A DNA stretch of 64,000 nt, taken from assembly GCA_964509605.1 (NCBI GenBank), contig CAZDXF010000001.1, positions 79,619 through 143,618 on the forward strand, given 5' to 3'. The stretch is from an uncultured Candidatus Saccharibacteria bacterium (lineage in GTDB: Bacteria; Patescibacteriota; Minisyncoccia; Phycocordibacterales; Zambryskibacteraceae). Position 1 is the first letter of the stretch, and the number at the start of each line of letters is the position of its first letter. Under the pieces are notes generated by a model, which did not search any database, was not told the DNA's origin, and worked only from the letters and a program-made list of their open reading frames with translations. Positions 7,332 through 48,072 of the stretch are shown in pieces. A program made the translations under genes and the position numbers.

Positions 7332-8101
7332 TGTCCTTATCTCAATTTACAGTCAAAACTTCTTCATTTGAAGGTCCGTTAGATTTACTGCTTTCTCTTA
7401 TAGAGAAAAGAAAGCTTTTTATAAATGATATTTCACTTTCTAAAGTTGCTGATGATTATATTGAACATGTAAACAAGATGGGTGATCTACCAATGGGAAT
7501 GACCGCTCATTTTATACTCATTGCTTCAACTTTGATTTTAATTAAATCTCGCTCTCTACTACCATCCCTAGAACTATCTCAAGAAGAAGAAAAAAGTATT
7601 GAAGATTTGGAAGAAAGGTTGAGACTTTATAAAAAATTTAAAGAGCTCTCGCTTCATGTCCAAAAAAGATTTGGCAAAAAAATAATTTTTTCTAAATCTA
7701 CCGGTCCCAACATACCAATAATATTTTCTCCTGATAAAGAAATATCCACACAAGCAATTTTGCAGGCAGTCCAAAACACAATATCCAACTTGCCGAAAAA
7801 AGAATCGCTACCAAAGACTATCGTGGAAAAAATTATAAGCCTTGAAGAAATGATAGAGCGCCTAACAGAGAGGGTGTCTGATGAGTTGAAAATGAATTTT
7901 AGTGATTTTACAAAAAATCATGGTACTGCTAAAGGTTCTCGACACAAAGCAATCTCCAGAGAAGAAAAGAAAAATATTATAGTAAGTTTTCTGGCGCTTT
8001 TAGAGCTAGTAAAACAAGGAATTCTTGAGGCAACACAAGAAAAAATGGAGGAAGATATAAATATAGAAACCCCAAAACTATCCCTGCCTAATTATATTTA
8101 A
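7331..8101 (+). CDS. scpA: Segregation and condensation protein A
   Basis: N-terminus FEGPLDLLLSLIEKRKLFINDISLSKVADDY is typical of ScpA. It is followed by scpB. Confidence 0.85.
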   Translation: MSLSQFTVKTSSFEGPLDLLLSLIEKRKLFINDISLSKVADDYIEHVNKMGDLPMGMTAHFILIASTLILIKSRSLLPSLELSQEEEKSIEDLEERLRLYKKFKELSLHVQKRFGKKIIFSKSTGPNIPIIFSPDKEISTQAILQAVQNTISNLPKKESLPKTIVEKIISLEEMIERLTERVSDELKMNFSDFTKNHGTAKGSRHKAISREEKKNIIVSFLALLELVKQGILEATQEKMEEDINIETPKLSLPNYI

Positions 8102-8659
8102 ATGAAAATTGACCTAAAATCACAAATTGAAGCTGTGCTTTTTTTCAAAGGAGAACCTGTCTCTTTTTCTAAACTTTCTCAGCTTTTAAAAGTATCGAAA
8201 GATGAAATAGAAAAAGCCCTACATCAATTGGAAGAAAAGTTGAAAGACGGTGGTTTGGTTTTGATAATTAGCAACGAAACAGTGATGCTTGGAACATCGC
8301 CGGAAGCCGGAAAAATAATCGAAGAAATCACAAAAGAGGAACTGCATAAAGATCTGGGAAGAGCAGGAATGGAAACCTTGGCAATAATTCTTTACAAACA
8401 CCCGATATCAAAAAAAGAAATTGATTACATAAGAGGAGTAAACTCTTCTTTCATAATAAGAAATCTTTTAATAAGAGGGATGATCCAAAGAAAAGATGTA
8501 GAGGGGGAGAGGGGATATTCATACGAACCAACATTAGAACTTTTTGCCTTTATGGGAATTTCAAAAAAAGAAGATTTGCCAGAATATTCGGAAGTCTTGA
8601 AAGAATTTGAAAATTTTAGTAAAAATGAGAGTCAAAAAGAGGCAGAGGAAAATATTTAA
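8102..8659 (+). CDS. scpB: Segregation and condensation protein B
   Basis: Winged-helix ScpB signature (EAVLFFKGEPVS...LS). It forms an operon with scpA. Confidence 0.85.
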   Translation: MKIDLKSQIEAVLFFKGEPVSFSKLSQLLKVSKDEIEKALHQLEEKLKDGGLVLIISNETVMLGTSPEAGKIIEEITKEELHKDLGRAGMETLAIILYKHPISKKEIDYIRGVNSSFIIRNLLIRGMIQRKDVEGERGYSYEPTLELFAFMGISKKEDLPEYSEVLKEFENFSKNESQKEAEENI

Positions 8660-9622
8660 ATGGTAGAAAATAAAGGAAATTACTTTGAGATAGAAAACAA
8701 ACGTCTGATTAGTTTGGGATTTTTGTTGTTGATATTTCTCTCAATAATATTTCTTGTCTCACTGTATACATCCAGAGGAATAAGAACTTACGAAGAAAAA
8801 AAACTGGCCGAAATAGAAAAAATTAATCCCTTCGAAAACTTGGCAATAGAAGCGCGTTCAGCGATTGTCTGGGATGTAGTAAACTCTCAATCAATTTTTG
8901 AAAAAAATCCCGATGAAAAATTGCCATTGGCTTCAATAACCAAACTGATGATGGCTGTAACGGCTTTGGATTTGGTTCCGAAGTATACCGTAGTAACTAT
9001 TGATAAAAAATTCTTGGAGGAAGAAGGAGACAGCGGTCTTTTTGCAGATGAAAAATGGGAACTTAAAGATCTGATAGATCTTTCAATGGTTGTATCTTCA
9101 AATGACGCAGCATCAGCAATTGCCGCTATTTCAGGAGGAGTCTCAGCGGGTTCTGAAGTTTTTGAAATAGGAAGACAGGAATTTATAAACAAGATGAATG
9201 AAAAAGCGCTCTCTATTGGAATGGAAAAAACTATTTTCTATAAAGAAAATGGACTGGACAGAGACAAAGAAAATAGTGGTGCCTACGGTTCTGCAAGAGA
9301 CATAGCTAAACTTTTTGAATATGCTCTCAAAAACCACCCGGATATTTTAGAGGCCACAAAATATGAAAACATCAAATTAAAATCTCTAAGTCAAATATCT
9401 CATGAAGTAAAAAATACCAACCAAATAGTCGGGGAAATACCTGGTCTTATAGGCTCAAAAACGGGCTATACAGAGCTTTCGGGGGGAAATTTGGGGGTAA
9501 TCATAGATCCGGGAATAGGAAGGCCTATAATAATAATCGTGCTGGGATCTGGCTATGAAAAGAGATTTGAGGATGTGGCTCTTCTTTCAAGGAAAACTCT
9601 AGACTATTTGGGGTCAAACTAA
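8660..9622 (+). CDS. D-alanyl-D-alanine carboxypeptidase (class C PBP, S11)
   Basis: N-terminal TM anchor plus SxxK (SITKLM), SxN (SSND) and KTG (KTGYT) active-site motifs. Confidence 0.8.
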   Translation: MVENKGNYFEIENKRLISLGFLLLIFLSIIFLVSLYTSRGIRTYEEKKLAEIEKINPFENLAIEARSAIVWDVVNSQSIFEKNPDEKLPLASITKLMMAVTALDLVPKYTVVTIDKKFLEEEGDSGLFADEKWELKDLIDLSMVVSSNDAASAIAAISGGVSAGSEVFEIGRQEFINKMNEKALSIGMEKTIFYKENGLDRDKENSGAYGSARDIAKLFEYALKNHPDILEATKYENIKLKSLSQISHEVKNTNQIVGEIPGLIGSKTGYTELSGGNLGVIIDPGIGRPIIIIVLGSGYEKRFEDVALLSRKTLDYLGSN

Positions 9623-9660
9623 TCCCTTTTACAATCATGGGCTAATGTATAATAAAGCCC

Positions 9661-10737
9661 ATGATTATTGCTGATATCGTAAAAGTTTTTCTTCCTGCAG
9701 TTCTGGCTTTTTGTATTGGAGTTTTAATAACTCCCATAATCACAAACTATCTCTATAAAAATGAGATGTGGAAGAAAAAAGCTGGCAAAATGACGCTCGA
9801 TGGAAAAGAAACTCCAGTCTTTAACAGTTTGCATAAAGAAAAAGAAGTAGGTACTCCTAGAATGGGCGGGCTCGTCATTTGGTCTTCTTCTGTAATTACG
9901 ATTCTTGGGATTTGGATAATCTCACTCACACTTCCATCTGACTTAAGTTCCAAACTTGATTTTCTAAGCAGGAATCAAACTTGGCTTCCTCTTTTTACTT
10001 TAATCTTGGGATCTCTAATTGGTTTACTTGATGATTATTTGGAAGTAAGCGGTGGAGGAGGACATGTTGCGGGGGGACTTTCCCTTAAAAAAAGACTTTT
10101 GGCCGTTGGAGCTATTGGTATTGTTTCTGGATTTTGGTTTTTTTCAAAACTTGATGTATCGGGAATAGGACTGCCAAACGATGGATTTATAAATTTAGGT
10201 TGGTTCTTTATTCCTTTCTTTGCGTTAGTAATGATAGCCATATATTCAGGAGGAGTGATAGACGGAATAGACGGATTGGCGGGAGGAGTTTTTGCGACAA
10301 TGTTTAGTGCATATGCAGGCATAGCTTTCTATCAACAACAAATAAATCTCGCTGCTTTTTGTCTAACGCTTGTTGGAGGAATCCTCGCTTTTCTTTGGTT
10401 CAACATTCCGCCAGCAAGGTTTTATATGTCAGAAACAGGGACAATGGGGCTAACTATAACATTGACTGTGGTGGCATTTATGACCGACTCCTTGGGTGGT
10501 GGATACGGAATTTTAGTTCTTCCAATAATTGCAATGCCTTTGGTAATAACAACCCTGTCCAACATCATCCAAGTAATTTCAAAAAAAATGAGAGCGGGTA
10601 AAAAGGTTTTCCTTGTTGCCCCAGTTCACCACCATTTTGAAGCAATTGGATGGCCCGGATACAAGGTTACAATGAGATATTGGATATTTGGTGTTGTTTT
10701 TGCAATTCTCGGAGTCATTTTGGCCATAACGGCCTAA
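9661..10737 (+). CDS. mraY: Phospho-N-acetylmuramoyl-pentapeptide transferase
   Basis: 10-TM protein with a DDxxD-like LLDDYLE motif and the PVHHHFE motif. It sits in a dcw-like order with ftsW and murG. Confidence 0.95.
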   Translation: MIIADIVKVFLPAVLAFCIGVLITPIITNYLYKNEMWKKKAGKMTLDGKETPVFNSLHKEKEVGTPRMGGLVIWSSSVITILGIWIISLTLPSDLSSKLDFLSRNQTWLPLFTLILGSLIGLLDDYLEVSGGGGHVAGGLSLKKRLLAVGAIGIVSGFWFFSKLDVSGIGLPNDGFINLGWFFIPFFALVMIAIYSGGVIDGIDGLAGGVFATMFSAYAGIAFYQQQINLAAFCLTLVGGILAFLWFNIPPARFYMSETGTMGLTITLTVVAFMTDSLGGGYGILVLPIIAMPLVITTLSNIIQVISKKMRAGKKVFLVAPVHHHFEAIGWPGYKVTMRYWIFGVVFAILGVILAITA

Positions 10738-11860: not shown

Positions 11861-12991
11861 ATGAAAATACTATTTACGGGCGGAGGAACTGGAGGTCACT
11901 TTTATCCAATAATCGCCATTGCTCAAGAGATAAATGCAATCGCAAAACAAAATAAATTAGCTCAAGTCGAGCTTTTTTACATGTCTCCGACTCCATACAA
12001 TGCCGGCATTCTTTTTGATAATAAAATTACATACAAAAAAAATTCGGCCGGAAAAATAAGAAGGTATTTTTCTATAATGAATTTCTTTGATTTGTTTAAA
12101 ACTATATGGGGAACCATAAAATCTATTTGGGAAATATTTCTGATTTATCCTGATGTTATTTTTGGAAAAGGTGGTTATGCAAGCTTTCCAGCAATCTTGG
12201 CTGGAAGAATTTTAAGAATTCCAATAATAATTCACGAATCTGATTCTGTCCCTGGGCGAACAAATGCATGGGCGGGAAAATTTGCTGAAAAAATAGCTGT
12301 TTCCTACCAAGAAGCCTCGAAGTATTTTAAAAAAAATGAGCGAGTTGCTTATACCGGGCAACCTGTAAGAAAAGATATACAACTTGCTCTTTCTACAAAT
12401 GCCCACGAATTCTTGAATTTAGATAAAAACATACCAACAATTTTTGTTCTCGGTGGATCTTTGGGGGCTAAAAAAATCAATGACATAATTCTAGAATCTA
12501 TACCTCAACTGGTGAATAAATACCAAGTTATTCACCAAACAGGGAAGGCAAATTTTGAAGAAGTGAGACAAACAGCCGAGGTTGTCTTGCAAAAAAATCC
12601 AAACAAAGAGAGATACAGGTTGTATGACTATATGGACGATCTGACACTTAGATCAGCGGCTGGAGCAGCCAATTTGATAATATCTCGAGCGGGCTCAACA
12701 ATATTTGAAATAGCGCACTGGGGAATTCCTAGCATTATAATCCCAATAACAGACTCAAACCAAAACCATCAATCCAAAAATGCGTTTGCTTATGCGAGAA
12801 CTGGATCTGCTGTAGTCATAGAAGAAGAAAACCTGACTGACAACATTTTAATCGCGGAAATTGGTAGAATCTTAGAAAATCCAGAAATATACAATAAGAT
12901 GGAGGAATCTACGAAAGAATTTGTAAGACCAGAAGCTTCAAAACTTATTGCTGAAGAGTTATTAAAGATTGCCTTAAAGCACGAAAAATGA
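11861..12991 (+). CDS. murG: UDP-GlcNAc:lipid I GlcNAc transferase MurG
   Basis: G-loop GGGTGGHFYP and a GT28 C-terminal domain. Confidence 0.9.
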   Translation: MKILFTGGGTGGHFYPIIAIAQEINAIAKQNKLAQVELFYMSPTPYNAGILFDNKITYKKNSAGKIRRYFSIMNFFDLFKTIWGTIKSIWEIFLIYPDVIFGKGGYASFPAILAGRILRIPIIIHESDSVPGRTNAWAGKFAEKIAVSYQEASKYFKKNERVAYTGQPVRKDIQLALSTNAHEFLNLDKNIPTIFVLGGSLGAKKINDIILESIPQLVNKYQVIHQTGKANFEEVRQTAEVVLQKNPNKERYRLYDYMDDLTLRSAAGAANLIISRAGSTIFEIAHWGIPSIIIPITDSNQNHQSKNAFAYARTGSAVVIEEENLTDNILIAEIGRILENPEIYNKMEESTKEFVRPEASKLIAEELLKIALKHEK

Positions 12992-14340
12992 AACCTGTAG
13001 TAAGAATAGCTCCATCACCAACTGGAAATCTCCACATAGGAACAGCTCGAACTGCTCTTTTTAATTTTCTTTTTGCCAAAAAATATGGAGGAAAATTCAT
13101 AGTCAGGATTGAAGATACTGACACCCAAAGAAGCACAAAAGAATTTGAAAAAAACATAATGGAAGGTTTTGAATGGCTTCGCTTAAAAGAAGATGAGTTT
13201 TTTAGACAATCCGAAAGAACAGAAATATATAAAAAATATTTATCAGAAATGATAAAAAACGGAACTGTTTATTTTTCAAAAGAAGATGGTGGGGAAGGGA
13301 AGAGGGCGGAGGTAATACGATTTAAAAATCCAAATAAAAAAATAAAATTTAATGATTTGGTAAGAGGAGAAGTAGAGTTTGACACAACAGAGTTAAAAGA
13401 TTTTGTCGTTGCGAAAAGTGAAACGGAACCTCTTTATCATTTGGCTGTGGTCATAGATGATCATGAAATGAAAATCACTCATGTCATAAGAGGTGAAGAT
13501 CATATATCAAACACACCGAGGCAAATTCTCATACAAGAGGCGATAGGAGCAAAGAGGCCGGAATATGCCCACATACCGCTCATACTAGCCAAAGACAGAT
13601 CAAAACTTTCAAAGAGACATGGGGCAACATCTATAAGTGAATACAAAGAAAGAGGATATTTGCCGGACGCAATAAATAATTATCTGGCTCTCTTAGGTTG
13701 GAATCCTGGGGACGATAGAGAAATATTTTCTATGGAAGAACTCATAAACAGTTTTGAGATAGAAAGAGTGCAAAAAGGTGGCGCAATATTTGATGAAGAA
13801 AAATTGAAATGGATAAACAAAGAACATATTAAAAGAATTGATCCCGAGGAACTCAAAAATAAAGTTTTGGAGCAATTTAAATCATCCTTTTTAAAAAATA
13901 AAAAACTAAACAACATAGATGAAGAAATGCTCAACAAAATACTTCCTCTCATACTTGAAAGATCGAACACCTGGAAAGATATAGATATTTTAATAGAAAA
14001 CAGTGAGTTTGATTATTTTTTCAACAAACCAGAAATAGGGGACACGAAAAAAATATTATGGAAAGATGAGAAAGATTTTGACAAGACCGCTCGTCTAATA
14101 GATGAGGTTGTGGAGATATTGAGCAACATAGAAGAGAATAATTTTACCCACAACACAATAAAAGAAAGTGTTTGGCAACTTGCTGAAAAAGAGGGGAGAG
14201 GGACCGTGCTTTGGCCAATGAGATTTTCTCTCTCTGGAAGAGAAAAATCACCAGATCCTTTTGTTTTAGCCGAAATACTAGGGAAGACAGAAACTTTGGA
14301 GCGACTAAAGTCTTCGTCCGTAAAATTAAAAAATAAATGA
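12988..14340 (+). CDS. gltX: Glutamate--tRNA ligase
   Basis: PSPTGNLHIGTARTALFN (HIGH motif) and KLSKR (KMSKS motif). Confidence 0.9.
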   Translation: MKPVVRIAPSPTGNLHIGTARTALFNFLFAKKYGGKFIVRIEDTDTQRSTKEFEKNIMEGFEWLRLKEDEFFRQSERTEIYKKYLSEMIKNGTVYFSKEDGGEGKRAEVIRFKNPNKKIKFNDLVRGEVEFDTTELKDFVVAKSETEPLYHLAVVIDDHEMKITHVIRGEDHISNTPRQILIQEAIGAKRPEYAHIPLILAKDRSKLSKRHGATSISEYKERGYLPDAINNYLALLGWNPGDDREIFSMEELINSFEIERVQKGGAIFDEEKLKWINKEHIKRIDPEELKNKVLEQFKSSFLKNKKLNNIDEEMLNKILPLILERSNTWKDIDILIENSEFDYFFNKPEIGDTKKILWKDEKDFDKTARLIDEVVEILSNIEENNFTHNTIKESVWQLAEKEGRGTVLWPMRFSLSGREKSPDPFVLAEILGKTETLERLKSSSVKLKNK

Positions 14341-16424: not shown

Positions 16425-16997
16425 CTAAAACTTCCTTATAACGGCCTTTACAATAGCTGCAACCTGAAAACTTTCCTGAGGATACATTGGCTTGTAATTT
16501 TTATTGGCTGGTTCAAGCCAGACTTTTTCTCCTTTTTTTCTAAAGTATTTCATAGTCCAACCACCATCAATTTCAGCAATGACAATGTCTCCATCGCGCG
16601 GATCCCCCTTTCTCTCCACTAAAACATAATCACCCTCATCTATGTGAGCTTCTATCATTGAATCTCCTTTAACTTCCAAAATATAGGTTTTATCTTTTTC
16701 TTCAACGAGAAAATCTTCCAGACTTATTGTGTCCAAATTTTGCTCTTCGGTTTCTGTTGGAAGACCGGCCTCAACCAAACCCAAAATGGGTATTTCATCA
16801 AAAACTTTTGCCGGAACAATGCGTCCTTGTGGGTCTTTTGAGACAATTCCCTCCTCGACTAGCCAAGAAATTAGTTTATGAACCGAATTTTTGGATTTAA
16901 AACCCAAAAGAGCCATTACCTCTTTATATCCTGGCATTCGCCGATTTTTTCTGTAAAAATCCAGAATTCTCTCTTTTTGTTCTTGTTTTTTGTTCAT
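16425..16997 (-). CDS. lexA: LexA repressor (S24 peptidase)
   Basis: N-terminal winged HTH (ILDFYRKNRRMPGYKEVMALLGF) and a C-terminal S24 domain with GDSM and the catalytic Lys region. A GAAC-N4-GTTC box lies upstream. Confidence 0.9.
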   Translation of the reverse strand: MNKKQEQKERILDFYRKNRRMPGYKEVMALLGFKSKNSVHKLISWLVEEGIVSKDPQGRIVPAKVFDEIPILGLVEAGLPTETEEQNLDTISLEDFLVEEKDKTYILEVKGDSMIEAHIDEGDYVLVERKGDPRDGDIVIAEIDGGWTMKYFRKKGEKVWLEPANKNYKPMYPQESFQVAAIVKAVIRKF

Positions 16998-17197: not shown

Positions 17198-17237
17198 AAT
17201 TTTTAAAATGATTTCTTAATATGTATATATTATAAGT

Positions 17238-17253
17238 GAACTCTGGTTCACCT
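17238..17253. promoter_or_regulatory. Putative LexA operator (GTGAACTCTGGTTCAC, GAAC-N4-GTTC type)
   Basis: Perfect inverted repeat matching the Gram-positive-type Cheo-box core. It sits in the divergent intergenic region between the small-ORF/lexA unit and the dsbA-like gene. Confidence 0.5.
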
Positions 17254-17324
17254 TTCAATAGATAATTGTGGATAACTTTAATCTTTGCTAAAATAAGCCT
17301 TTAAACGCTTAAAATAAAACAAAA

Positions 17325-22081: not shown

Positions 22082-22761
22082 ATTTTTTTATTCTTAATAT
22101 CAGACACAATTTCACCATCAGACAGCGTTATGACTCTGTGAGAAAGTCTCGCATATTCCGGCTCGTGTGTCACCATTATAATTGTTTGCCCTTCCTTGTT
22201 AAGATCCAAAAAATTCTTCAAAACAATTTCTGAAGTTTCGCTGTCCAAGTTGGCTGTCGGTTCGTCCGCAAAAATTATTTTTGGATTATGCGCCACAGCT
22301 CTGGCAATAGAAACTCTTTGCTGTTCACCGCCAGAAAGTCTAGAAGGTGTGTGATCCATTCTATGTCCCAAACCAATTCTCTTCAAAGCTTCTTCGGCTT
22401 TTCTTGAAGCTTCATCCTTTGAAAGCCCTTGCATTAAGAGCGGGGCCATTACATTTTCAACGGCATTCAATTCTGGCACCAAAGCATAGTCTTGAAAAAT
22501 ATAACCAAGCTCGTTTAGTCTTATGTCTGTCCTTTCTTCATTTGAAAGACTTGTCGCCTCTCTTCCATCAATAAAAACTTTTCCAGAATTTGGATAGTCT
22601 AATAAACCAAGCTGGTACATAAGTGTACTCTTGCCCGATCCAGACCTTCCAGTAATGGAGACGAATTCTCCAGTAGACACCTCAAAAGAAACGCCTTTAA
22701 GAACCGTGAGCTCTGTGTCCCCGCTTTTGAAAGACCTGACAATGTTTTCTGCTTTTATCAT
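22078..22761 (-). CDS. ABC transporter ATP-binding protein (MacB/LolD-like)
   Basis: Walker A GRSGSGKST, signature LSGGEQQRVSIARA, Walker B IIFADEPT, and an H-loop. Confidence 0.9.
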   Translation of the reverse strand: MIKAENIVRSFKSGDTELTVLKGVSFEVSTGEFVSITGRSGSGKSTLMYQLGLLDYPNSGKVFIDGREATSLSNEERTDIRLNELGYIFQDYALVPELNAVENVMAPLLMQGLSKDEASRKAEEALKRIGLGHRMDHTPSRLSGGEQQRVSIARAVAHNPKIIFADEPTANLDSETSEIVLKNFLDLNKEGQTIIMVTHEPEYARLSHRVITLSDGEIVSDIKNKKI

Positions 22762-23033
22762 TTACCCGCTTTAATTTTTAATGAATTACGAAGCATTTTT
22801 TTCAAGTGATTTCGTCCCCAACCAGTTTTCAACCATTTCTCTCTTATAAACGCATCGTCCCTGCTCAAAAATGCTTCGTAGTGTAGTAATGATAAGGGGG
22901 TTCTGGTAGAAGTCGAAGATACTTTCTTTTGATTATGAAGTTTCAGCCTCTGCTTCAAATCAACAGCACAACCAGTGTACATTTTTCCGTCCTTTTTACT
23001 TTTTAAAATATATACATAATACATATTATTCAT
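22758..23033 (-). CDS. GIY-YIG nuclease superfamily protein (UPF0213/YhbQ-like)
   Basis: YYVYILKSKKDGKMYTGCAVDLKQRLKLHN is a canonical GIY-YIG core. The 91-aa ORF is wedged between the permease and ATPase genes of the ABC operon. Confidence 0.8.
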   Translation of the reverse strand: MNNMYYVYILKSKKDGKMYTGCAVDLKQRLKLHNQKKVSSTSTRTPLSLLHYEAFLSRDDAFIREKWLKTGWGRNHLKKMLRNSLKIKAGK

Positions 23034-23051
23034 TAAAAATTATGGCGGGTG

Positions 23052-24335
23052 CTATTTTCTTCCTAAAATTGAATCCAGAATATTTTTCTTTACGACTATT
23101 CTAGCTGGAATGTAGCCAGCAATAAGCGTTGCAATAACCAGAATAAGAGCCCTTCTTGCTGTGTTGGGCACTTCAGCAACTAAAATTCCATCGCTAAACG
23201 GAAATTTAATCGGATGTGCATCTATAAACGGAACAAGAAAACCGTACAATATCAAAAGCCCGATTGCTATTCCAATGACGGCATAAAAAATGGACTGCAA
23301 TACATACGAAAATTCTATGGCAATTGAGTCTATTCCGATGCCCTTTAAAATTCCTATATATTTTCTTCTGGTAATTGCATTAATAAAAATAACAATAAAA
23401 ATTGTAATAGAAGACGCGACAAGACCTATAGAACCAACCACATTTCCGAGAAGGCCAAAAGTGTTTTGAATATCCAAAAGAAACTTAGGCAAAGACTCTT
23501 CCCAAGTCTGAACTCTGGCAAACTTGTCGGCTCCGGATGAAATAAGAGCAGATTTTGCCAGTTCACTGTCGGCTCCGTTTTTCAAGACAACAGTTATCTC
23601 ATCAACATTAAAATCTCCTCTACCAATAAGCGGTCGCATTGTAGAATCCAACATAAACACTCTGAAATCCACCTGATCCACTTTGCTTTGAAGAATTCCC
23701 AAAACCGTAAATTCTTTTCTATTCTCGCCAAAACTAATTCTCACTTTATCCCCCACCTCAACATCTTCCAGCAAAGAAATTCCCGGAGCTTCAATATCCA
23801 AAAATCTTCTCAAAAGATTTGCTCCTATCAAAATACCTTCGGAATCATCTTTGGTAAGGTACCTACCTTCGATTACGGTCGAGGAAAGATTAGTCGCTTC
23901 GTTTTCAAGAATTGGATCAATTCCTACAATAGACGCACCGGCCGAATTTGGATTGTCTGTGAGTCTTGTTCTGGTCTTGTAATTTGCTTCAACAGTACCT
24001 CCTTCAACATATCTATAAGTAATCTTATCCGTCCAAGGAAGATTTCTTGCAGTTTCTATTACAGTGGAACTATTTTCTATAAAATTTTTCTGCGGGAGAT
24101 TCGTAATTATTATGTCGCCAGCATATCCAGATTTATATACATTTGTCGAACCTTGCAAAAGCCCAACCAAAATACCTCTGATAACCACCAGATTTAGAAA
24201 AGTCAGCACCATTATAAAAATAATGAGAGCGGTGGTCGCCTTGCTTGATCTCCTAAGTTGCCTTAACGCCAAGAAAAAACCCACAGAAAGAGAGACAGCT
24301 ATTTTGGAGAGCTTTTTTTGGGTTTTTTGCATCAT
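23052..24335 (-). CDS. ABC transporter permease (FtsX/MacB family)
   Basis: N-terminal TM segment, a large periplasmic domain, and three C-terminal TM helices typical of FtsX-like permeases. Confidence 0.85.
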   Translation of the reverse strand: MMQKTQKKLSKIAVSLSVGFFLALRQLRRSSKATTALIIFIMVLTFLNLVVIRGILVGLLQGSTNVYKSGYAGDIIITNLPQKNFIENSSTVIETARNLPWTDKITYRYVEGGTVEANYKTRTRLTDNPNSAGASIVGIDPILENEATNLSSTVIEGRYLTKDDSEGILIGANLLRRFLDIEAPGISLLEDVEVGDKVRISFGENRKEFTVLGILQSKVDQVDFRVFMLDSTMRPLIGRGDFNVDEITVVLKNGADSELAKSALISSGADKFARVQTWEESLPKFLLDIQNTFGLLGNVVGSIGLVASSITIFIVIFINAITRRKYIGILKGIGIDSIAIEFSYVLQSIFYAVIGIAIGLLILYGFLVPFIDAHPIKFPFSDGILVAEVPNTARRALILVIATLIAGYIPARIVVKKNILDSILGRK

Positions 24336-24962: not shown

Positions 24963-25005
24963 TTTAAAAAATATTTTCTAAATTATATCATTTTCACAAC
25001 TTTTT

Positions 25006-25031
25006 ATTTCGTTCGATATATCGAACGAAAT
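25006..25031. promoter_or_regulatory. Perfect 26-bp palindrome ATTTCGTTCGATATATCGAACGAAAT (putative operator) abutting the -35 of the downstream GC-rich gene
   Basis: An exact palindrome. A TTGACTTTTTT-N16-TATAAA promoter follows within 12 bp. Confidence 0.5.
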
Positions 25032-25119
25032 TTACGATGGATATTGACTTTTTTTATATATTTAGTATAAAAAAGATAGACATGTTCTAATCAAACTCAA
25101 TACTCAACGGGGAGGAAAA

Positions 25120-25953
25120 ATGAGAAGGCTCCAGAATTGGTTCAGGAAAATAGGTTCGAAAAAAGTTCTGATTGCCGTGATTGGCGTCGTTTTCGGTACC
25201 TTCCTTGGTTCCTTTTTTACTTTCATGTTTGGTCCAGTCATGGGTCTCGTGCCGGGTCTCGTTATCGGTATCATCGGAGGTCTCTTCCTAGGTCTCTTCT
25301 GGGGTTTTGGATCCACCCTCGGCGTTCTTTTAGCTGTTGCTGTGTGGTTATATCCCGGTCCAATGATTTACACTTGGTTGATGGTAACTTTGTCGCTCGT
25401 CATTAAGAGCTGGTTCTTGGTAAGGGGAGAAATGAGGTGGAAAAAGATAATCTGTACAGAGAATGCTCAACACTACCCTTCCCTTTCCGACCTGAGGCAA
25501 AGCTCTCTTCGGCTGATTGAAGTAGAGGGATTCTCCGTTTTTAAGAAAAAGGCGGAGGAGGTGTACCTAGATCTACCGAAGATCGCCCGAGAGCTCTTAG
25601 ATCTGCATTCCGCCTACAACAAAAGCACTTCCCAAATCAAGACAGAGATGTACAGAGGTGAAATACTTAAGACTGTCGAGAGACTTCTGGAGATGAACGA
25701 GATATTCTCCCAAGAACTCGTCCGTCTTGAGCGTGAACAACCGAGTAGAGAAGCTGACGAATCAAAGATTGTAGTTTCCAAGCTCGCCACAATAGGCGGT
25801 CTTGAAGACACTCTTGATGAACTTCGTCGCCTCAGAGATGGAATGGTTGAAGCGGAAGATGAAACACCTCAAGGCACAGCTCTTGAAAGAGAGATTGATG
25901 GCTTGAAGCAAGCTTCCCCATTGCCGTTTCCTCGCGTGAAAGGCAACTACTAG
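25120..25953 (+). CDS. Hypothetical membrane protein (glycine-zipper-rich 3-TM N-terminus plus cytoplasmic coiled-coil domain); GC-rich cassette gene
   Basis: GGGGAGG Shine-Dalgarno sequence. GxxxG-rich TM helices followed by a ~170-aa charged helical domain. About 50% GC. Own promoter and terminator. Confidence 0.6.
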   Translation: MRRLQNWFRKIGSKKVLIAVIGVVFGTFLGSFFTFMFGPVMGLVPGLVIGIIGGLFLGLFWGFGSTLGVLLAVAVWLYPGPMIYTWLMVTLSLVIKSWFLVRGEMRWKKIICTENAQHYPSLSDLRQSSLRLIEVEGFSVFKKKAEEVYLDLPKIARELLDLHSAYNKSTSQIKTEMYRGEILKTVERLLEMNEIFSQELVRLEREQPSREADESKIVVSKLATIGGLEDTLDELRRLRDGMVEAEDETPQGTALEREIDGLKQASPLPFPRVKGNY

Positions 25954-25954
25954 A

Positions 25955-25999
25955 ACCCCCACGATAACCCCCGCAGGTTGTCGTGGGGGTTATCTTTTT
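25955..25999 (+). terminator. Rho-independent terminator
   Basis: CCCCCACGA...UCGUGGGGG stem followed by UUAUCUUUUUU. Confidence 0.6.
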
Positions 26000-26039
26000 T
26001 ATTTATTAAAATTAATTACAAAGTTTTCCATTTCGTTCA

Positions 26040-26065
26040 ATATATCGAACGAAATGGACTTCTAA
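26040..26065. promoter_or_regulatory. Second copy of the 26-bp palindrome (one mismatch: ATTTCGTTCAATATATCGAACGAAAT)
   Basis: Same sequence as 25006..25031 except G->A at one position. It lies ~70 bp upstream of the next GC-rich ORF. Confidence 0.5.
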
Positions 26066-26133
26066 ATTTATTTCTTTGTGATAGTCTTCTCGAAAGAAAT
26101 TTGCTCTAAACCAAATCCCCCCATGGAGGCTAT

Positions 26134-26394: not shown

Positions 26395-26437
26395 CCCGCA
26401 CGGTCGTAGCGCTACGACCGTGCGGTTTCTGTTTTTT
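26395..26437 (+). terminator. Rho-independent terminator (15-bp perfect palindromic stem + U-tract)
   Basis: CCGCACGGUCGUAGC/GCUACGACCGUGCGG followed by UUUCUGUUUUUU. Confidence 0.65.
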
Positions 26438-26450
26438 CTCTTCTGTCTAC

Positions 26451-26500
26451 TTATTACTGTTTACTAATTACTATCTATTAACTCCTGCCTACTATTTTAG
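26451..26500. repeat. TACTGTTTACTAATTACTATCTA...CCTACTATTTTAG motif, copy a of a 3-member repeat family
   Basis: Related copies lie at 34467..34535 and 38600..38637. Each lies just after a GC-rich terminator and overlaps or abuts the stop codon of a convergent minus-strand gene. Confidence 0.5.
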
Positions 26501-30742: not shown

Positions 30743-32176
30743 GTGAATAAGGAATTAGGAATAATGAAACTCGTAAATACGCTAACTGGGAAAAAAGAAA
30801 AATTTGAACCAATCCACGAAAAAGAGGTGGGGATGTACAACTGCGGTCCAACGGTCTACAACTACGCCCATATTGGCAATCTGCGCGCTTATGTTTTTGC
30901 CGACACTTTGAGAAGAGCTTTGGAATACAGCGGATTTAAGGTAAACCAAGTCATAAATATCACCGACATTGGCCACCTTTCAGGAGACGGAGATGAGGGA
31001 GAGGACAAAATGACAAAAGCTCTCAAGCGTGAAGGAAAACCTTTTACACTTGAGGCGATGCGAGAGTTGGCAAATTTTTATTTCAAAGCTTTCAAAGAAG
31101 ATTTGAATAAACTCAACATAAAAGAGCCTGACCACTTCCCTTTCGCAAGCGATCATATAAAAGAAGATGTCAGTTTAATTGAAAAGTTGACTGAAAAAGA
31201 TTTTGCTTATAAAACAAGTGATGGAATTTATTTTGATATATCAAAAGACAAAAACTACGGCAGACTTGGTCGCCAAAACTTTTCCCAAGAAAATTTAGGC
31301 GACCAATATAGCGTATCTAGAATAGGAACGAATCCAGAAAAAAGAAATCCGAGAGACTTCGCGCTTTGGAAATTTAATTCCGAGCTTGGTTTTGAAGCAC
31401 CTTTTGGAAAAGGATTTCCCGGCTGGCACATAGAGTGCTCTGCAATGTCTATGAAATACCTGGGGGAAACTTTTGATATTCATACCGGAGGGACAGACCA
31501 TATTCCTGTTCACCATAATAATGAAATAGCGCAATCAGAAAATGCTACCGGAAAAGAATTTGCTCGTTTTTGGCTCCACTCTGCATTTGTAAATATGGGC
31601 GAAGAAAAAATGGCGAAGTCCGAAGGAAATACCCTCACTTTAAAAGATCTTGAAGAAAAAGGAATCCACCCTCTTGCCTATCGCTTTTGGCTACTTCAAG
31701 CAAAATACAGCTCACCAATAAATTTTTCTTGGGAGGCGGTAAAGTCAGCACAAATAAGCTATTTAAAAATACTTAGACATTGGGGACTACTACAAATTAC
31801 AATAACACCAACAACCCTTGATGCTGATTTTGAAGGTTACCAAAAGAGGTTTAGACAGACGATTGAAGATGATCTAAACACCCCACAAGCCATAGCCTTA
31901 ATTTGGGAAATACTCGAAAACGATAATTTGAACAATTTCTACAAAAAACAACTTATTGCAGATTTTGATAAAGTCCTTGGTTTAAAAATAGAGTCTATGG
32001 AGGCATATGTTGATCTAAAAAAAATCCCTGAAGAAGTTAGAAAGATGATAGAAGAAAGAGAAAGCGCTAGAAAAGAGAAAGATTGGGAAAAATCGGACAA
32101 AATAAGAGAGGAGTTAAAATCAAAAGGTTATGAAATAGAAGATACTCCAGAAGGGGTGAGAGTTTCAAAAATCTAG
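30743..32176 (+). CDS. cysS: Cysteine--tRNA ligase
   Basis: CGPTVYNYAHIGNLR (HIGH motif), KMAKSEGN (KMSKS motif), and the zinc-binding Cys/His residues. Confidence 0.95.
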   Translation: MNKELGIMKLVNTLTGKKEKFEPIHEKEVGMYNCGPTVYNYAHIGNLRAYVFADTLRRALEYSGFKVNQVINITDIGHLSGDGDEGEDKMTKALKREGKPFTLEAMRELANFYFKAFKEDLNKLNIKEPDHFPFASDHIKEDVSLIEKLTEKDFAYKTSDGIYFDISKDKNYGRLGRQNFSQENLGDQYSVSRIGTNPEKRNPRDFALWKFNSELGFEAPFGKGFPGWHIECSAMSMKYLGETFDIHTGGTDHIPVHHNNEIAQSENATGKEFARFWLHSAFVNMGEEKMAKSEGNTLTLKDLEEKGIHPLAYRFWLLQAKYSSPINFSWEAVKSAQISYLKILRHWGLLQITITPTTLDADFEGYQKRFRQTIEDDLNTPQAIALIWEILENDNLNNFYKKQLIADFDKVLGLKIESMEAYVDLKKIPEEVRKMIEERESARKEKDWEKSDKIREELKSKGYEIEDTPEGVRVSKI

Positions 32177-32181
32177 CCCTC

Positions 32182-32241
32182 ATTTCGTTCGATATATCTA
32201 ATTACCCTTCCCCTTACTATCGATATATCGATAGTAAGGGG
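32182..32241. promoter_or_regulatory. Half-copy of the 26-bp palindrome (ATTTCGTTCGATATATC) followed by a distinct perfect 32-bp palindrome CCCCTTACTATCGATATATCGATAGTAAGGGG
   Basis: It shares the TCGATATATCGA core with the 25006 and 26040 sites. It lies between cysS and the dnaB promoter (TGTGTTAAAAT). Confidence 0.45.
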
Positions 32242-32422
32242 AAAGTACTTCTATTTCTCCATCCTTTATTCGCCATTCCTCATTCTTTATTTTTTTCCCC
32301 ATTCCTCCTAAAAGCTAACAACTAGTAGCTAAAAGCTGTCGCTCCCTCTCCCCACTCTCCCCACAACTTTTTCCCTTATAAATATTTTCCTTTTCCTGCC
32401 ACCCTTGTGTTAAAATGCTCGC

Positions 32423-33805
32423 ATGCCGGACAACCTCATCAAAGAAAAAGTTCGCATCCCCCCTCAAAACATAGAAGCCGAAATGGCTCTTTTGGGTTCA
32501 ATAATGCTTCGCCCAGAAGCGATTTATGAAGTTATAGACATAGTCAGCCCAAAATCTTTTTATGCCGAAAAGCACTCTCTCATATTCGGCACAATGCTTG
32601 AACTTTTCAACAAGAGAGAACCCATAGATCTACTATCTCTATCTTCTCGTCTAAAAGAACGAAAGCTTTTAGACCAAATAGGTGGCGCGAGCTATCTAAC
32701 AGAGCTTGTAAACACAGTACCCTCGTCTGCAAACCTAAAACACTATGCAGAAATAGTTCAGAAAAAGTTTATGATGCGCCGACTGATAGAAGTGTCTGAA
32801 CACATATCTGGTCTCGGCTTTGAAGAGGCGCACGACCTGGAAGAAATTTTAGACAAAGCAGAAAAAGCAATTTACGAAATCACTGGAGCCGGAGCCACAA
32901 GAACTTTTACAGAAATCAGAGATGAGCTTTCTGAAGCTTGGGAAAGATTGGACAAACTTCACAATGCAAAAGGAGAGCTTCGCGGAGTACCTACTGGTTT
33001 TGCAGAGCTTGATCACAAACTGGCAGGATTCCAAAAATCAGACCTCGTCATCATTGCTGCTCGCCCATCAATGGGAAAAACTTCTTTGGCTTTGGACATT
33101 GCGCGCCAGACCGCAGTAAACCACCAAGTACCTGTCGGAATATTTTCTCTTGAAATGAGTGCTCAACAACTTGTGGATAGAATGCTCGCCGCTCAATCAA
33201 ATGTGGATGCTTGGAAACTTCGCACAGGAAAACTCTCGCGCGAAGAAGATTTTGCATCAATCCGCCAATCTCTAGACAAGCTCTCTCAAGCTCCAATTTA
33301 TATAGACGACCAGCCGGCAAACAATATTATGAAAATGCGCTCTGTTGCCAGGCGCCTTAAAAGTGAGAAAAATCTTGGCCTCGTAATAGTGGACTATCTT
33401 CAGCTTATGGTCCCCACCCAATCTCGTTCAAGCGACAATATGGTCCAGCAAGTCACGGAAATATCCAGATCTCTTAAAAACCTCGCCAGAGAGCTAAATA
33501 TCCCTGTTATAGCCCTTTCCCAGCTTTCTCGTGCCGCCGCCCAGACAGGAGAAAAGCCCAAGCTCCACCATCTAAGAGACTCTGGATCCATTGAGCAGGA
33601 TGCCGATGTTGTGATGTTTATTCACAGAGAAGACAAGTTTAAAGAAGAATCTGAAAAGACAAATATTGCCGAAATTCTCATTGAAAAACACAGAAATGGA
33701 GAAACTGGTAAAATAGAACTTTATTTCAACGAAAAGAAAGCTACTTTCCAAAGTATAGAAAATTCAAAATTTGGAGGAACAGAAAAAGAGTTTGAGAATT
33801 TCTAA
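32423..33805 (+). CDS. dnaB: Replicative DNA helicase DnaB
   Basis: N-terminal primase-interaction domain, a RecA-fold with Walker A ARPSMGKTS, H1/H4 motifs, and the characteristic Arg finger. Confidence 0.95.
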   Translation: MPDNLIKEKVRIPPQNIEAEMALLGSIMLRPEAIYEVIDIVSPKSFYAEKHSLIFGTMLELFNKREPIDLLSLSSRLKERKLLDQIGGASYLTELVNTVPSSANLKHYAEIVQKKFMMRRLIEVSEHISGLGFEEAHDLEEILDKAEKAIYEITGAGATRTFTEIRDELSEAWERLDKLHNAKGELRGVPTGFAELDHKLAGFQKSDLVIIAARPSMGKTSLALDIARQTAVNHQVPVGIFSLEMSAQQLVDRMLAAQSNVDAWKLRTGKLSREEDFASIRQSLDKLSQAPIYIDDQPANNIMKMRSVARRLKSEKNLGLVIVDYLQLMVPTQSRSSDNMVQQVTEISRSLKNLARELNIPVIALSQLSRAAAQTGEKPKLHHLRDSGSIEQDADVVMFIHREDKFKEESEKTNIAEILIEKHRNGETGKIELYFNEKKATFQSIENSKFGGTEKEFENF

Positions 33806-33808
33806 AAA

Positions 33809-34423
33809 ATGAGCGCTGTTCAAAAACTTACAGAATTGTTTAAAGATTTTCCAGGGATTGGTCCGAGACAAGCCAAGCGGTTTGTATATTTTCTTCTAAC
33901 AAGAAACAAAGATTATTTAAAAGACCTCACTGACGCTATTGAAGAGCTGAAAGCTGAAACGGCTTCTTGCTCATCTTGCTTCAGATTTTTTACAAAAGAA
34001 AAAAACGGATCTTTGGTCTGCCCTATCTGCTCTTCTGCAAACAGAGACAGTGCTTCTTTAATGATTGTCTCAAGAGATGTTGATTTGGAAAATATAGAAA
34101 AGACAGATACCTACAACGGTATGTATTTTGTATTGGGAGGGACCGTGCCAATACTTGAAAAAGAACCCGAAAAAAGAATCCGTATTAGAAATCTGATTAG
34201 AAAAATAGAGGACGGTAAAAAAGATATAAAAGAAATAATTTTTGCCTTGAGTCTTAACCCTGAGGGCGAAAATACAGAAGATTATGTCAGAGAAAAAATT
34301 AAAGATGTTTGTGAAAAAAATTCAATAAAAATTTCTGTTCTTGGCAGAGGTCTCTCCACAGGACTTGAGCTTGAATACTCCGACTCCGAAACCTTAAGAA
34401 ATGCTTTGAAAAATAGAACATAA
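33809..34423 (+). CDS. recR: Recombination protein RecR
   Basis: HhH (FPGIGPRQAKR), a C4 zinc finger (CSSC...CPIC), and a Toprim domain. Confidence 0.9.
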   Translation: MSAVQKLTELFKDFPGIGPRQAKRFVYFLLTRNKDYLKDLTDAIEELKAETASCSSCFRFFTKEKNGSLVCPICSSANRDSASLMIVSRDVDLENIEKTDTYNGMYFVLGGTVPILEKEPEKRIRIRNLIRKIEDGKKDIKEIIFALSLNPEGENTEDYVREKIKDVCEKNSIKISVLGRGLSTGLELEYSDSETLRNALKNRT

Positions 34424-34425
34424 AA

Positions 34426-34470
34426 AAACACCCCGTTTCGCGATTCGCGAAACGGGGTGTTTTTTTCTAC
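34426..34470 (+). terminator. Rho-independent terminator
   Basis: AAAAAACACCCCGTTTCGCGATTCGCGAAACGGGGTGTTTTTTT. Confidence 0.7.
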
Positions 34471-34535
34471 TGTCTACTAACTACTTCCCACTATTTACTG
34501 TCTACTGTTTACTAACTACTGTCTACTATTTTATT
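34467..34535. repeat. TACTGTCTACTAACTAC...TGTCTACTATTTTA motif, copy b (tandemly reiterated)
   Basis: Contains several iterations of TACTGTCTACT / TTTACTAACTACT. It abuts the rplU stop codon. Confidence 0.5.
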
Positions 34536-40195: not shown

Positions 40196-40357
40196 GTCAC
40201 AAGTCCAATTCATTCTGAATTGGCTCGCGACCCCGACTCGGCAACCCCGCCCTCTAATTAGAGGGCGGGGGCTTCGCGCCTCTGTCTTTCGATTCCCAGT
40301 ATGGAACCCTGTGGGTACTAAAAATCCGATGCTCTCGCATCGGATCTTAAGTACCCA

Positions 40358-45505: not shown

Positions 45506-47284
45506 TCAAACGCCAACGGTGAGACGACGCTTCTTTGTCGCCACCTTTTTGGACTGAGACTTGCCATCGGAAGACTTCTGATCCTTAACGTTGCTGTCAA
45601 GAATCTTCTTGCCACGACGTCCTCCAAACTGACGCCCGGCGATGGTATCGCCGTGAATCAGCATGAAAACGTACGGGGCATAGGTCTCCTCCAACACAAG
45701 TTCTGCGAACGGCGCCCAATCGCTCGGGGCGGCCCGGAGAGCCAGCGCCTGTAGCATGACATACTCCTGGAAACGCATCAGAGTTCTGTCACTGTGCTCT
45801 TCGCACTGTTGCCACAGAGGGTGCAGAACATTAATCCTCAGGGTGCCGGTTTCCTCTTCCAATACCCAGAGTCGGTCGCTTCCCTGAATAGCATCATGCA
45901 CCAACTGAAGTCCGAGACTGTTGCTACGGACAATCGTTCGGCGTGTGCCTTTTGGACCAACGACCGTCATGGGACGGTGTTCTGGACGTTCCTTCTCGGG
46001 TTCAAAGTTCTCATTACCCTCACCCTCACCATTTGAGGGCTTCTCGGGACGAAGGTTATTGACGGCCAGAGACGTTTCCGGAGAAGGACTTCCCTTCTTT
46101 TCGAAATGCCCAGGTCCAATCGAACCCTTCTTGAAAGACTCAATGGCCTTGAGAAGCCCAGCAAACTGCGGCCTCTTCAACATCTCTTCGATGACTTTCA
46201 TCGAACGAATGCCGAGTTGCTGGTAGCGCTCCTCTTGCCGCTGATCATTAGCGTCCTGATAATGCTCGGCGCCGTGTTCAGCGAACCACTTTTCGAGGAT
46301 CACACAGAAACCAACCAGCGACTCGTCGGCCTCAAACGACCGGCGACTGGCGTGGAGTGTGATTGCACTGTTGAGGACCTCACCCTCGAAAAGACCAGAA
46401 CCCAGAGCAGACACAAGCTCATCCGAGAGCTTACACGCCTCCGGCAAGGACCGATTGAATGTCGAGAAGTTCAGACGAAAATCGTTGTCCTTCTCGCCAA
46501 CCAAGACCTTACCATTGCGCTTACCCTTCTTATCCTTCTGGGCCAAGAAGAGTCGGAAGTGGGTCTGCCCCGACTCCCTGTCTCGATAATCGACCTCTTC
46601 CAGCTTCCTGCCAGTGAAGTCCTTGGCCCTGATTTCACAACTCTGCCGTTCACCGTCTTCATCGACGACAGTCAACTCAATCACCGACTGGTTCTTACGC
46701 ATGGTGGAAGCGAAACGCTCCAACACACCATCACGAAGGGAATCCATAGTCACGATGTTGATCTGTCGATCGGTCGTGAACCCTTCGATTCTCACCTCAG
46801 TACGCCAGCGAACAGAGGACACTCCACGAACCACTCGCGTCTCTGCCCGAGAAAACTGCAGATCGAGGCGCTCCCTCATGGGGATGCCTTCGATCTTCTG
46901 CTGTTTCAGGAGATCGTCGGTAACGAAGCTCCACTCCAAGAAACCCTTGGGGTTCCGCTTGGTAGTGGAGGTAAAGATGAATCGAGCACACTTGCCCAAT
47001 GGCGAGATAAGCCCAAGACCAAAGCGTCCCAATTTATCCTTCTTCTTGATGGAAGAGGAAACGCTGGTCAGGGCCTTTTCAAACTCTTGCTGACTCACTC
47101 CATCTCCATCATCGCGGACAGCGATCTGACGCTGCTTCTGATTCACAACGATGGTGATAACCTGAGCTCCCTTGTCGAGACAGTTTTGCACGCTCTCGAG
47201 CAAGACATCCAGGATCCTAGGGTAGTACCCCGCAAGTTTGAGCAGGGCCGCTCCCTCATGAAAACTAAAAGGGCTCTGTTTCAC
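45506..47284 (-). CDS. GHKL-superfamily ATPase (MORC/MutL/Hsp90-like Bergerat fold) with unknown C-terminal domains; third gene of the GC-rich operon
   Basis: N-box ESVQNCLDKGA (ExxxNxxD), G1 RDDGDGV, and G2 LGRFGLGLIS, followed by ~450 aa without recognised motifs, including an E/G-rich linker. GTG start with an AAAGGAGA Shine-Dalgarno sequence. About 55% GC. Confidence 0.7.
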   Translation of the reverse strand: MKQSPFSFHEGAALLKLAGYYPRILDVLLESVQNCLDKGAQVITIVVNQKQRQIAVRDDGDGVSQQEFEKALTSVSSSIKKKDKLGRFGLGLISPLGKCARFIFTSTTKRNPKGFLEWSFVTDDLLKQQKIEGIPMRERLDLQFSRAETRVVRGVSSVRWRTEVRIEGFTTDRQINIVTMDSLRDGVLERFASTMRKNQSVIELTVVDEDGERQSCEIRAKDFTGRKLEEVDYRDRESGQTHFRLFLAQKDKKGKRNGKVLVGEKDNDFRLNFSTFNRSLPEACKLSDELVSALGSGLFEGEVLNSAITLHASRRSFEADESLVGFCVILEKWFAEHGAEHYQDANDQRQEERYQQLGIRSMKVIEEMLKRPQFAGLLKAIESFKKGSIGPGHFEKKGSPSPETSLAVNNLRPEKPSNGEGEGNENFEPEKERPEHRPMTVVGPKGTRRTIVRSNSLGLQLVHDAIQGSDRLWVLEEETGTLRINVLHPLWQQCEEHSDRTLMRFQEYVMLQALALRAAPSDWAPFAELVLEETYAPYVFMLIHGDTIAGRQFGGRRGKKILDSNVKDQKSSDGKSQSKKVATKKRRLTVGV

Positions 47285-47301
47285 TGCAGTCTCCTTTTTG
47301 C

Positions 47302-48072
47302 TTATTGCTGGTGGTTGTTGACAAGCTCGCGAGCCTTCTCACTACAGAGTCGACTCGACGCTTTCGACAGGCGAAACATACCATCAGATCCAGTCCGCTT
47401 ACGCAGCTCGTTACGTTGTTCTCGACTGGTTTCAGAAACCGCCCTTTCAAGAAGAGGGGTGATAGCCAAAACCAGATGAGCCAAGACCTCAATTGAAATT
47501 GGGTCTTGTTTCTCAAGATCGAGTGCGCCTTTTGCTACTTGAGTAACTGGTGTACTGGGGGGGTCCGTCTCAACATAAATCTTGATTGACGGAACCCGCA
47601 TCAAAACGCTAAGCAGGGTGGCCTTTTTCTTTGCCAACTCTTCCCCTGCTTCCCCATAGAGCCTTTCTACCTTCTGCGTTCTGGCAGTGTTGGTATCAGA
47701 ATCCGCACGAGCCAAGCGAAATACGCTGTGCGTATCACCGAAACCAAGATGTTCACGGGCTTCTTCTGGCGTCAAAATATCGTACGCCAAAAGCTCGGCT
47801 AGCTTGTGACTGACATGATCAGTACCATGCACATATTCCACAAGCTCGTACCCAACCGCTTCGAGAAATAGACGAAGCTTGATCAGTGGCTCTCCCAACG
47901 GAACATTTCGACCATAAATCCAGGCCGATACCGTGTCAGGATGAACGCGCACAAACTCAACCAGTGGCAATTTCGCCTTGCCAGCTTCCTTGCTACCTTT
48001 CGGTGGTAGAGAATGTTCGGCAAAATGTGCCAAACACTCAATTGTGGTGCCTCGAAACAGTTTACTCATCAC
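47302..48072 (-). CDS. Hypothetical helical protein (256 aa); second gene of the GC-rich operon
   Basis: AAGGAG Shine-Dalgarno sequence 6 nt upstream. About 55% GC. It lies 17 bp upstream of the GHKL ATPase gene. Confidence 0.6.
   Translation of the reverse strand: MMSKLFRGTTIECLAHFAEHSLPPKGSKEAGKAKLPLVEFVRVHPDTVSAWIYGRNVPLGEPLIKLRLFLEAVGYELVEYVHGTDHVSHKLAELLAYDILTPEEAREHLGFGDTHSVFRLARADSDTNTARTQKVERLYGEAGEELAKKKATLLSVLMRVPSIKIYVETDPPSTPVTQVAKGALDLEKQDPISIEVLAHLVLAITPLLERAVSETSREQRNELRKRTGSDGMFRLSKASSRLCSEKARELVNNHQQ

Follow-up and report, generated by a model that had tools for sequence, protein, structure and literature searches.

Palindromes downstream of cysS in a Patescibacteria genome as candidate copies of a TrpR-like regulator's operator motif

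What is the meaning of two neighbouring palindromes in the short spacer that separates cysS from dnaB, in a genome of the Patescibacteria, a group whose transcriptional regulation is, to our knowledge, almost entirely uncharted? In this work, we examine this question in a stretch of 64,000 nucleotides, which we call the window. The original prediction for this locus was that half of an operator is fused there to a different palindrome of 32 bp, just upstream of the dnaB promoter, so that dnaB would be placed under a regulator that also acts elsewhere in the window, or else that the spot marks a recombination junction.

The gene cysS (cysteinyl-tRNA synthetase, Pfam tRNA-synt_1e) lies at 30743-32176 on the plus strand, with its stop codon at 32174-32176, and it is followed on the same strand by dnaB, encoding the replicative helicase (32423-33805, ATG at 32423), and then by recR (33809-34423). 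Both predicted sequences are indeed present in the cysS-dnaB spacer, ATTTCGTTCGATATATC at 32182-32198 and CCCCTTACTATCGATATATCGATAGTAAGGGG at 32210-32241, and they stand far above what is expected by chance according to shuffled sequences. The 12-mer TCGATATATCGA, with at most one mismatch, is found four times in the 64-kb window (25013, 26037, 32189 and 32220) against 0.10 expected, a count that was reached in 0 of 100 shuffles. Perfect palindromes with arms of at least 13 nt also number four in the window, and 200 shuffles gave none. The idea of a shared type of core thus stands, but that of a fusion does not, as an 11-nt spacer (TAATTACCCTT, 32199-32209) parts the two sequences, whose core centres are 31 bp apart.

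The limits of both elements are also different from those first proposed. The left one, site 3a (32182-32207, with no strand, as for the other palindromes), starts 6 nt past the cysS stop codon and is a degenerate copy of a 26-bp palindrome that we call type A, with ATTTCGTTCGATA followed by TATCtAATTAccc. It had been taken for a half-site. Its left half is that of the consensus described below, while its right half, TATCTAATTA, is off only at the invariant position 5 (G to T), so that its centre, TCGATATATCTA, is an inexact version of the core; with this single core mismatch, site 3a is to be counted as a nearly complete 20-bp site. Over 20 nt it matches at 95% the arm found at 25012-25031, and it shares 17 nt exactly with the type A palindrome A1, an identity that shows the common descent of 3a and A1. 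Its profile score is borderline (19.7, against a maximum of 18.6 in shuffled sequences) and ranks third in the window after A1 and a second copy, A2.

The right element, site B, is a perfect loopless palindrome of 36 bp rather than 32 bp (32208-32243, TTCCCCTTACTATCGATA followed by TATCGATAGTAAGGGGAA), with ends TTCCCC...GGGGAA, and it starts 32 nt past the cysS stop codon. Its 12-bp core is exact and positions 1-6 are kept, but both arms carry an A at position 7, where T is found in 36 of the 36 reference half-sites, and its profile score is below the threshold. As a DNA hairpin, it is predicted to reach -16.5 kcal/mol (z -7.8). Logan short-read contigs of the same organism end inside it, as expected for a palindrome that is longer than the assembler word size. 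The only open reading frames of the spacer are short and of low complexity, none being convincing. Regarding structured RNA, Rfam gave a single match above a gathering score in the whole window, to a tRNA; with relaxed thresholds, the region 31900-32700 yielded nothing but chance matches to miRNAs and lncRNAs, and six related loci gave no match.

The two other copies of the motif are found about one gene apart. Site A1 (25006-25031) is a perfect 26-bp palindrome, ATTTCGTTCGATATATCGAACGAAAT, located between two divergent promoters, one for a gene that we call ORF277 and the other for an RNase T-like exonuclease gene; it is an exact match to the profile and has the best score in the window (36.1). 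Site A2 (26027-26058), TCCATTTCGTTCaATATATCGAACGAAATGGA, is palindromic over 32 bp but for one mismatch at the centre, and a 26-bp part of it at 26030-26055, with one core mismatch, has the second-best score (28.7). It lies past the ORF277 terminator and adjoins the -35 box predicted for the gene that follows, so that both A1 and A2 adjoin predicted promoters. ORF277 itself (25120-25953, plus strand), between the two sites, encodes an orphan membrane or coiled-coil protein, has its own promoter and terminator, and gave no homologue apart from itself and no Pfam match. The whole segment, 24975-26131, is a 1.1-kb insertion that stands in place of 82 bp in two relatives, L019 and L021.

A candidate for the protein that would recognize these sites came from other genomes. 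When 185,579 species genomes were scanned for a 22-mer of the motif, only a Taylorbacteria genome matched, in which the palindromes bracket a gene for a 133-aa TrpR-like protein, and more of them are found near ksgA and ftsZ. At the Taylorbacteria locus L004, convergent terminators enclose a pair of sites, which are thus away from any promoter position, a point against the operator reading given below. Palindromes with the CGATATATCG core were then found to flank the 133-aa TrpR-like gene in 8 of the 8 Patescibacteria species examined (loci L003, L061, L062, L063, L066, L068, L069 and L073), with homologues down to 33% identity. Upstream of the gene there are one to three sites, centred 14-30 bp ahead of the ATG and often over the -10 box, and in two of the eight species extra upstream sites extend out to -177. 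Downstream, there is one site in every species, 16-64 bp past the stop codon. Taken over the eight loci, 18 sites are near the TrpR-like gene and only 1 is elsewhere in 38.9 kb. At two loci, L063 and L069, the upstream palindrome supplies with its right arm a -10-like hexamer (TATGAT and TAAGAT, respectively), 6-7 nt before the ATG, which, as far as can be read from the DNA, is the classical geometry of a putative autorepression.

The protein has a helix-turn-helix (HTH) as its only domain. Pfam Trp_repressor matches 30 of the 32 members of the family, the best solved relatives (3kor, 3frw and 3g1c) are all annotated as TrpR-like, and the family counts 518 representatives at E <= 1e-3. CPR hosts are not known to possess histidine or tryptophan biosynthesis. 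The neighbourhoods of the gene (X) vary, with pcrA-X-ksgA, rbfA-X, tsf-X-pheS, rmuC-X-yqeY and ndk-X-map arrangements; in L068, a related genome with the recR-rplU-rmuC-yqeY synteny, rmuC and yqeY enclose the gene and its two sites, whereas in the window these two genes are only 68 bp apart. A tblastn search found no TrpR-like gene in the 64-kb window, and a viral scan for this regulator gave nothing. Our literature searches returned no paper linking Patescibacteria with a TrpR-like regulator, and those on the exact core brought up nothing but unrelated primer or oligonucleotide papers.

From these loci, we built a profile of 36 half-sites, with positions numbered outward from the centre of the palindrome. 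Positions 1-5 (A, T, A, G, C) are invariant, position 6 is T or A, position 7 is T in 36/36, position 8 is never C, position 9 is C or T, and position 10 is T in 30/36. Written inward, the half-site reads T-(C/T)-n-T-(T/A)-C-G-A-T-A, and the full consensus is TCnTwCGATATATCGwAnGA. The prediction of a single DNA-binding specificity is therefore supported, since the core flanks the TrpR-like gene in 8/8 species and the window sites fit the half-site profile wholly or largely, with the TrpR-like protein as the candidate binder. Our preferred reading, to which we give a probability of about 55%, is that 3a and B are two copies of the motif that serves as operator for this ~133-aa TrpR-like HTH regulator, which is widespread in Patescibacteria (Paceibacteria-type CPR), although the association of motif and gene may also have a meaning other than operator and repressor. 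This would apparently be an operator family that is itself undescribed, belonging to a known class of regulators.

Several other matches were considered and discarded. Fourteen viral contigs contain a 16-mer of the motif, but in all of them the arms stop at 8-9 nt; we regard them as chance matches and retain no phage link. Many metagenome matches to an 18-mer are unrelated: those in L023, L025 and L051 are coding and correspond to the reverse-transcriptase peptide ENVRYIERF, those in L028 and L055 appear to lie upstream of an archaeal-looking HTH gene, and further ones, in high-GC genomes, are unrelated too. As a separate observation, L058 (60-440) carries two tandem sites in a 43-bp unit that is duplicated; they are closely followed by a strong sigma-70-like promoter, which would drive a ~150-nt structured, terminator-ended transcript preceding murB, for which there is no Rfam match.

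Is the pair downstream of cysS a switch for dnaB? The distances and the relatives both argue against it. Site B ends 164 nt before the predicted -10 box of dnaB and 3a adjoins the cysS stop codon, the two sites spanning 164-227 nt upstream of this -10, so they are not just upstream of the dnaB promoter as had been proposed, and neither of them overlaps or adjoins a promoter. What precedes dnaB directly is a conserved block (32343-32422, plus strand), kept in four genomes and starting about 100-170 nt past the palindromes. This block contains direct repeats, TCCCCAC (32349-32355) and TCCCCACA (32358-32365), and a predicted extended -10 TGnTAAAAT (32408-32416) located 6 nt ahead of the ATG, so that the dnaB mRNA would apparently be leaderless. 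Its counterparts are at 9930-10000 in L019, 3005-3073 in L071 and 9915-10000 in L021. Of the cysS-dnaB spacer, only the last ~85 nt before dnaB are common to all four genomes, and this block is more likely than the palindromes to be the control region of dnaB.

The closest named relatives of the DnaB of the window are Zambryskibacteria, and three relatives share the order corA-cysS-dnaB-recR-rplU-rmuC-yqeY. In L019 (DnaB 96% identical in amino acids and about 78% in nucleotides, 21 kb examined), the cysS-dnaB spacer has 168 bp and no palindrome; in L071 (DnaB 96% in amino acids, 14.5 kb examined), it has 115 bp and no palindrome either; in L021 (DnaB 87% in amino acids, 21 kb examined), it has 2.1 kb and contains small GC-rich units. 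No GATATATC-core palindrome was found in the 14-21 kb examined of each. The comparison of orthologous cysS-dnaB regions that had been suggested along with the prediction therefore speaks against it: three of three relatives with the cysS-dnaB-recR synteny are without the site, and the conserved block is separate from it. It follows that the window sites are lineage-specific and, given also their distance from the conserved dnaB promoter, that the sites after cysS are probably not a dnaB switch. The alignment of the window to L019 and L071 after cysS is ambiguous at about 78% identity, which leaves breakpoints undefined, and the 8-mer CTAATTAC is common to the window and L071. The spacer of L021 is an insertion hot spot in its own right, where about 2.1 kb (7840-9990) is taken up by short GC-rich units that each have a strong terminator and a sigma-70-like promoter and are parted by repeated C/T-rich stretches (CAAACTTATCAACTTCCC).

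If the operator reading is followed through, the regulator, presumably a dimer like TrpR, would bind a 20-22-bp palindrome. At its own gene, it would sit on the site over or beside the -10 box and thereby repress its own transcription, and it would also occupy the second site just past its own stop codon. In the window, A1 and A2 would be the sites bracketing the inserted orphan gene ORF277, while the cysS-dnaB pair would be a lineage-specific acquisition, probably derived from the duplication of an A-type site followed by a palindrome-driven inverted duplication or perfecting. Were the regulator present and binding there, the pair would most plausibly act as a protein or hairpin roadblock to cysS read-through rather than on the dnaB promoter, and it may equally have no regulatory effect. 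The cysS-dnaB site would thus be a lineage-specific, and probably weak or non-functional, instance of the operator.

A different reading, which we find unlikely but worth setting out, is that the palindromes bound movable palindrome-gene-palindrome modules, the cysS site being a scar or a junction. It would account for A1, ORF277 and A2 (24975-26131) making up one insertion when compared with L019 and L021, for the TrpR-like gene being always bracketed by two palindromes in neighbourhoods that differ from one lineage to another, for the lineage-specific presence of the window sites, and for the look of 3a as a decayed copy beside a different palindrome. A1 can also be read as 10-bp arms around a 6-bp ATATAT centre, which we take to be the layout of a tyrosine-recombinase core site. 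However, no recombinase, transposase or integrase was seen beside any site among the open reading frames inspected, and neither a target-site duplication, nor a second identical module, nor any sign of a junction was found. The position of the TrpR-like gene is kept within the species pairs L003/L061 and L063/L069, as expected for vertical inheritance, and in L021, small GC-rich cassettes are inserted without such palindromes.

Two other segments of the window have features of mobile or foreign DNA. A 91-aa GIY-YIG open reading frame (22758-23033, minus strand) falls within a 290-bp segment (22764-23053) that is missing from L019, carries 23-nt inverted repeats (22764-22786 and 23028-23050) and lies between ABC ATPase and FtsX permease genes; it looks like a miniature mobile GIY-YIG element. 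A GC-rich block at 45506-48072 (0.50-0.53, versus about 0.38 elsewhere), with genes for a 592-aa GHKL-type ATPase (HATPase_c_3) and for a 256-aa protein that matches no Pfam family, could have a foreign origin or form a defence island.

Site B could also be nothing more than the 3'-end terminator or RNA hairpin of cysS, its shared core being incidental, and we judge this a little less probable again. It starts at the proper place, and as RNA it would form a 16-bp stem, the region being predicted to reach -27 kcal/mol (z -5.8); loopless perfect palindromes serve as terminators elsewhere in the genome (26396-26425 and 34422-34466), and the hairpin of the L019 cysS-dnaB spacer is degenerate in the window. 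Yet there is no T-run on either side of B, unlike in the genome's own terminators, and its stem is AT-rich at the centre. A terminator scan did not report B, while it did report true terminators nearby. Moreover, B is linked to the motif family by its identical 12-bp core and by the neighbouring 3a copy, and the A2 and L004 sites lie beyond terminators, in untranscribed DNA.

The terminators of this genome have peculiarities of their own. Those at 26396-26425 and 34422-34466 are perfect palindromes with a loop of 0 or 1 nt, acting as predicted bidirectional terminators between convergent genes, and this unusual loopless perfection is seen again in relatives (L019 13052-13084 and L021 3564-3606). 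Another loopless palindrome, of 26 bp, is located at 40245-40270, about 90 nt from a tRNA-Glu gene. TACT-rich 75-nt repeats (CTGTCTACT..TTTACTAATTACT), 72% alike, are found in the window at 26425-26499 and 34459-34533, and in L019 at 13089-13128, in the gaps that separate terminators from the 3' ends of genes on the minus strand, and L071 has a similar TACT-rich stretch after cysS (2965-3000).

Many of the sites are perfect palindromes that well exceed the 20 bp of an operator. The two sites of L003 have 38 and 42 bp, and those of L063, L066 and L060 have 34, 36 and 40 bp, respectively, while that of L035 has 30 bp and is nested within terminator-like arms. The outer arms of the long sites are unrelated in sequence. 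Perfect palindromy over 34-42 bp, as in L003, L063, L066, L060 and B, is not explained by protein recognition alone. We infer that such long arms come from hairpin-driven template switching, perfecting and extending a strongly self-pairing core. Mutagenesis by template switching at quasi-palindromes, and inverted duplication at hairpins, were reportedly described by Ripley in 1982 and by Dutra and Lovett in 2006. Such a process would give perfect but mutually unrelated arms growing outward from a conserved core, as well as a displaced partial copy beside a new perfect palindrome; it differs from the present case in that no intermediate or ancestral state was recovered for the window sites. To judge from their sequences, 3a and B could be an old site and an inverted duplication built on its neighbour; the relatives are too diverged for breakpoints to be placed. 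Taylorbacteria have a second palindrome family, GTCAAGGTTnAACCTTGAC, with variable outer arms (L003 6306-6334, L046 4879-4903 and L052 685-713).

A broader view would join these threads, although we regard it as quite improbable: the CGATATATCG palindromes would not be mere passive operators but, together with the TrpR-like protein, would define cruciform-prone boundaries of exchangeable palindrome-gene-palindrome modules, of which the first would have been the regulator gene itself, ORF277-like orphans would be captured passengers, and the cysS site would be a spent or half-formed boundary left by a hairpin-driven inverted duplication.

Least credible of all, to the point of being nearly negligible, is a LexA (SOS) or NrdR box that would place dnaB-recR in a DNA-damage or replication regulon. 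NrdR has the consensus CwAtATaTwG and binds tandem 16-bp boxes about 31-32 bp apart, and the window cores resemble this consensus and are spaced by 31 bp; lexA is inside the window (16425-16997, minus strand), and an exonuclease gene, dnaB and recR are among the neighbours of the sites. LexA is excluded by the box that precedes the lexA operon in this genome, GTGAACTCTGGTTCAC (GAAC-N4-GTTC, 17236-17251), which is of the Cheo type and unlike GTTCGATATATCGAAC, while NrdR is disfavoured by a pair spacing that is not constant, being 36 bp in L004 and 43 bp in L058, and by the linkage of the motif to the TrpR-like gene rather than to nrd or SOS genes; no NrdR-like zinc-ribbon open reading frame was found in the window. 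Near the lexA operon box there is a perfect DnaA box (TTATCCACA, minus strand, 17267-17275), and L071 encodes at 12298-13875 a 525-aa protein combining, according to Pfam, a LexA DNA-binding domain, a Peptidase_S24 domain and a DNA methylase domain.

We thus return to the operator reading. The cysS-dnaB site itself appears dispensable, and its value is to have led to a candidate regulator-operator pair with a nearly invariant 10-bp core, kept down to 33% protein identity, and a fixed two-site layout. This pair is a testable handle on a conserved regulator in reduced genomes, and the long perfect arms on a conserved core make a compact case for the growth of palindromes in repair-reduced genomes.

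How does this system compare with those already known? Like REP and BIME sequences, the palindromes are short, intergenic, sometimes paired and variably present among relatives; unlike them, they occupy only three loci in 64 kb and none in the relatives, they are perfect and loopless, they are tightly linked to one regulator gene, and no RAYT-type transposase was seen. They also differ from dif, which is a single site, by their multiple copies in the window. The closest parallel is with the regulators of the TrpR family, including HisR (= YerC), which bind 20-bp palindromes, with the operator consensus cacTTTAnnnnnnTAAAgtg for HisR and TGTAcTnGTnnACnAgTACA for TrpR, and about half of the HisR (YerC) genes are autoregulated (PMC9413887). 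The Patescibacteria protein is not the YerC/YecD equivalog (TIGR02531), for which it scores 19.8 bits against an NCBIfam cut-off of 42.2, with a motif unlike cacTTTAnnnnnnTAAAgtg. With HisR and TrpR it shares a small all-helical TrpR-type HTH architecture, a palindromic operator of ~20 bp, a site before the regulator's own gene and a consensus that varies by lineage. It departs from them by its own consensus (TCnTwCGATATATCGwAnGA), by its length of ~133 aa, of which some 35 form a conserved C-terminal extension, and by the second site that always follows the gene.
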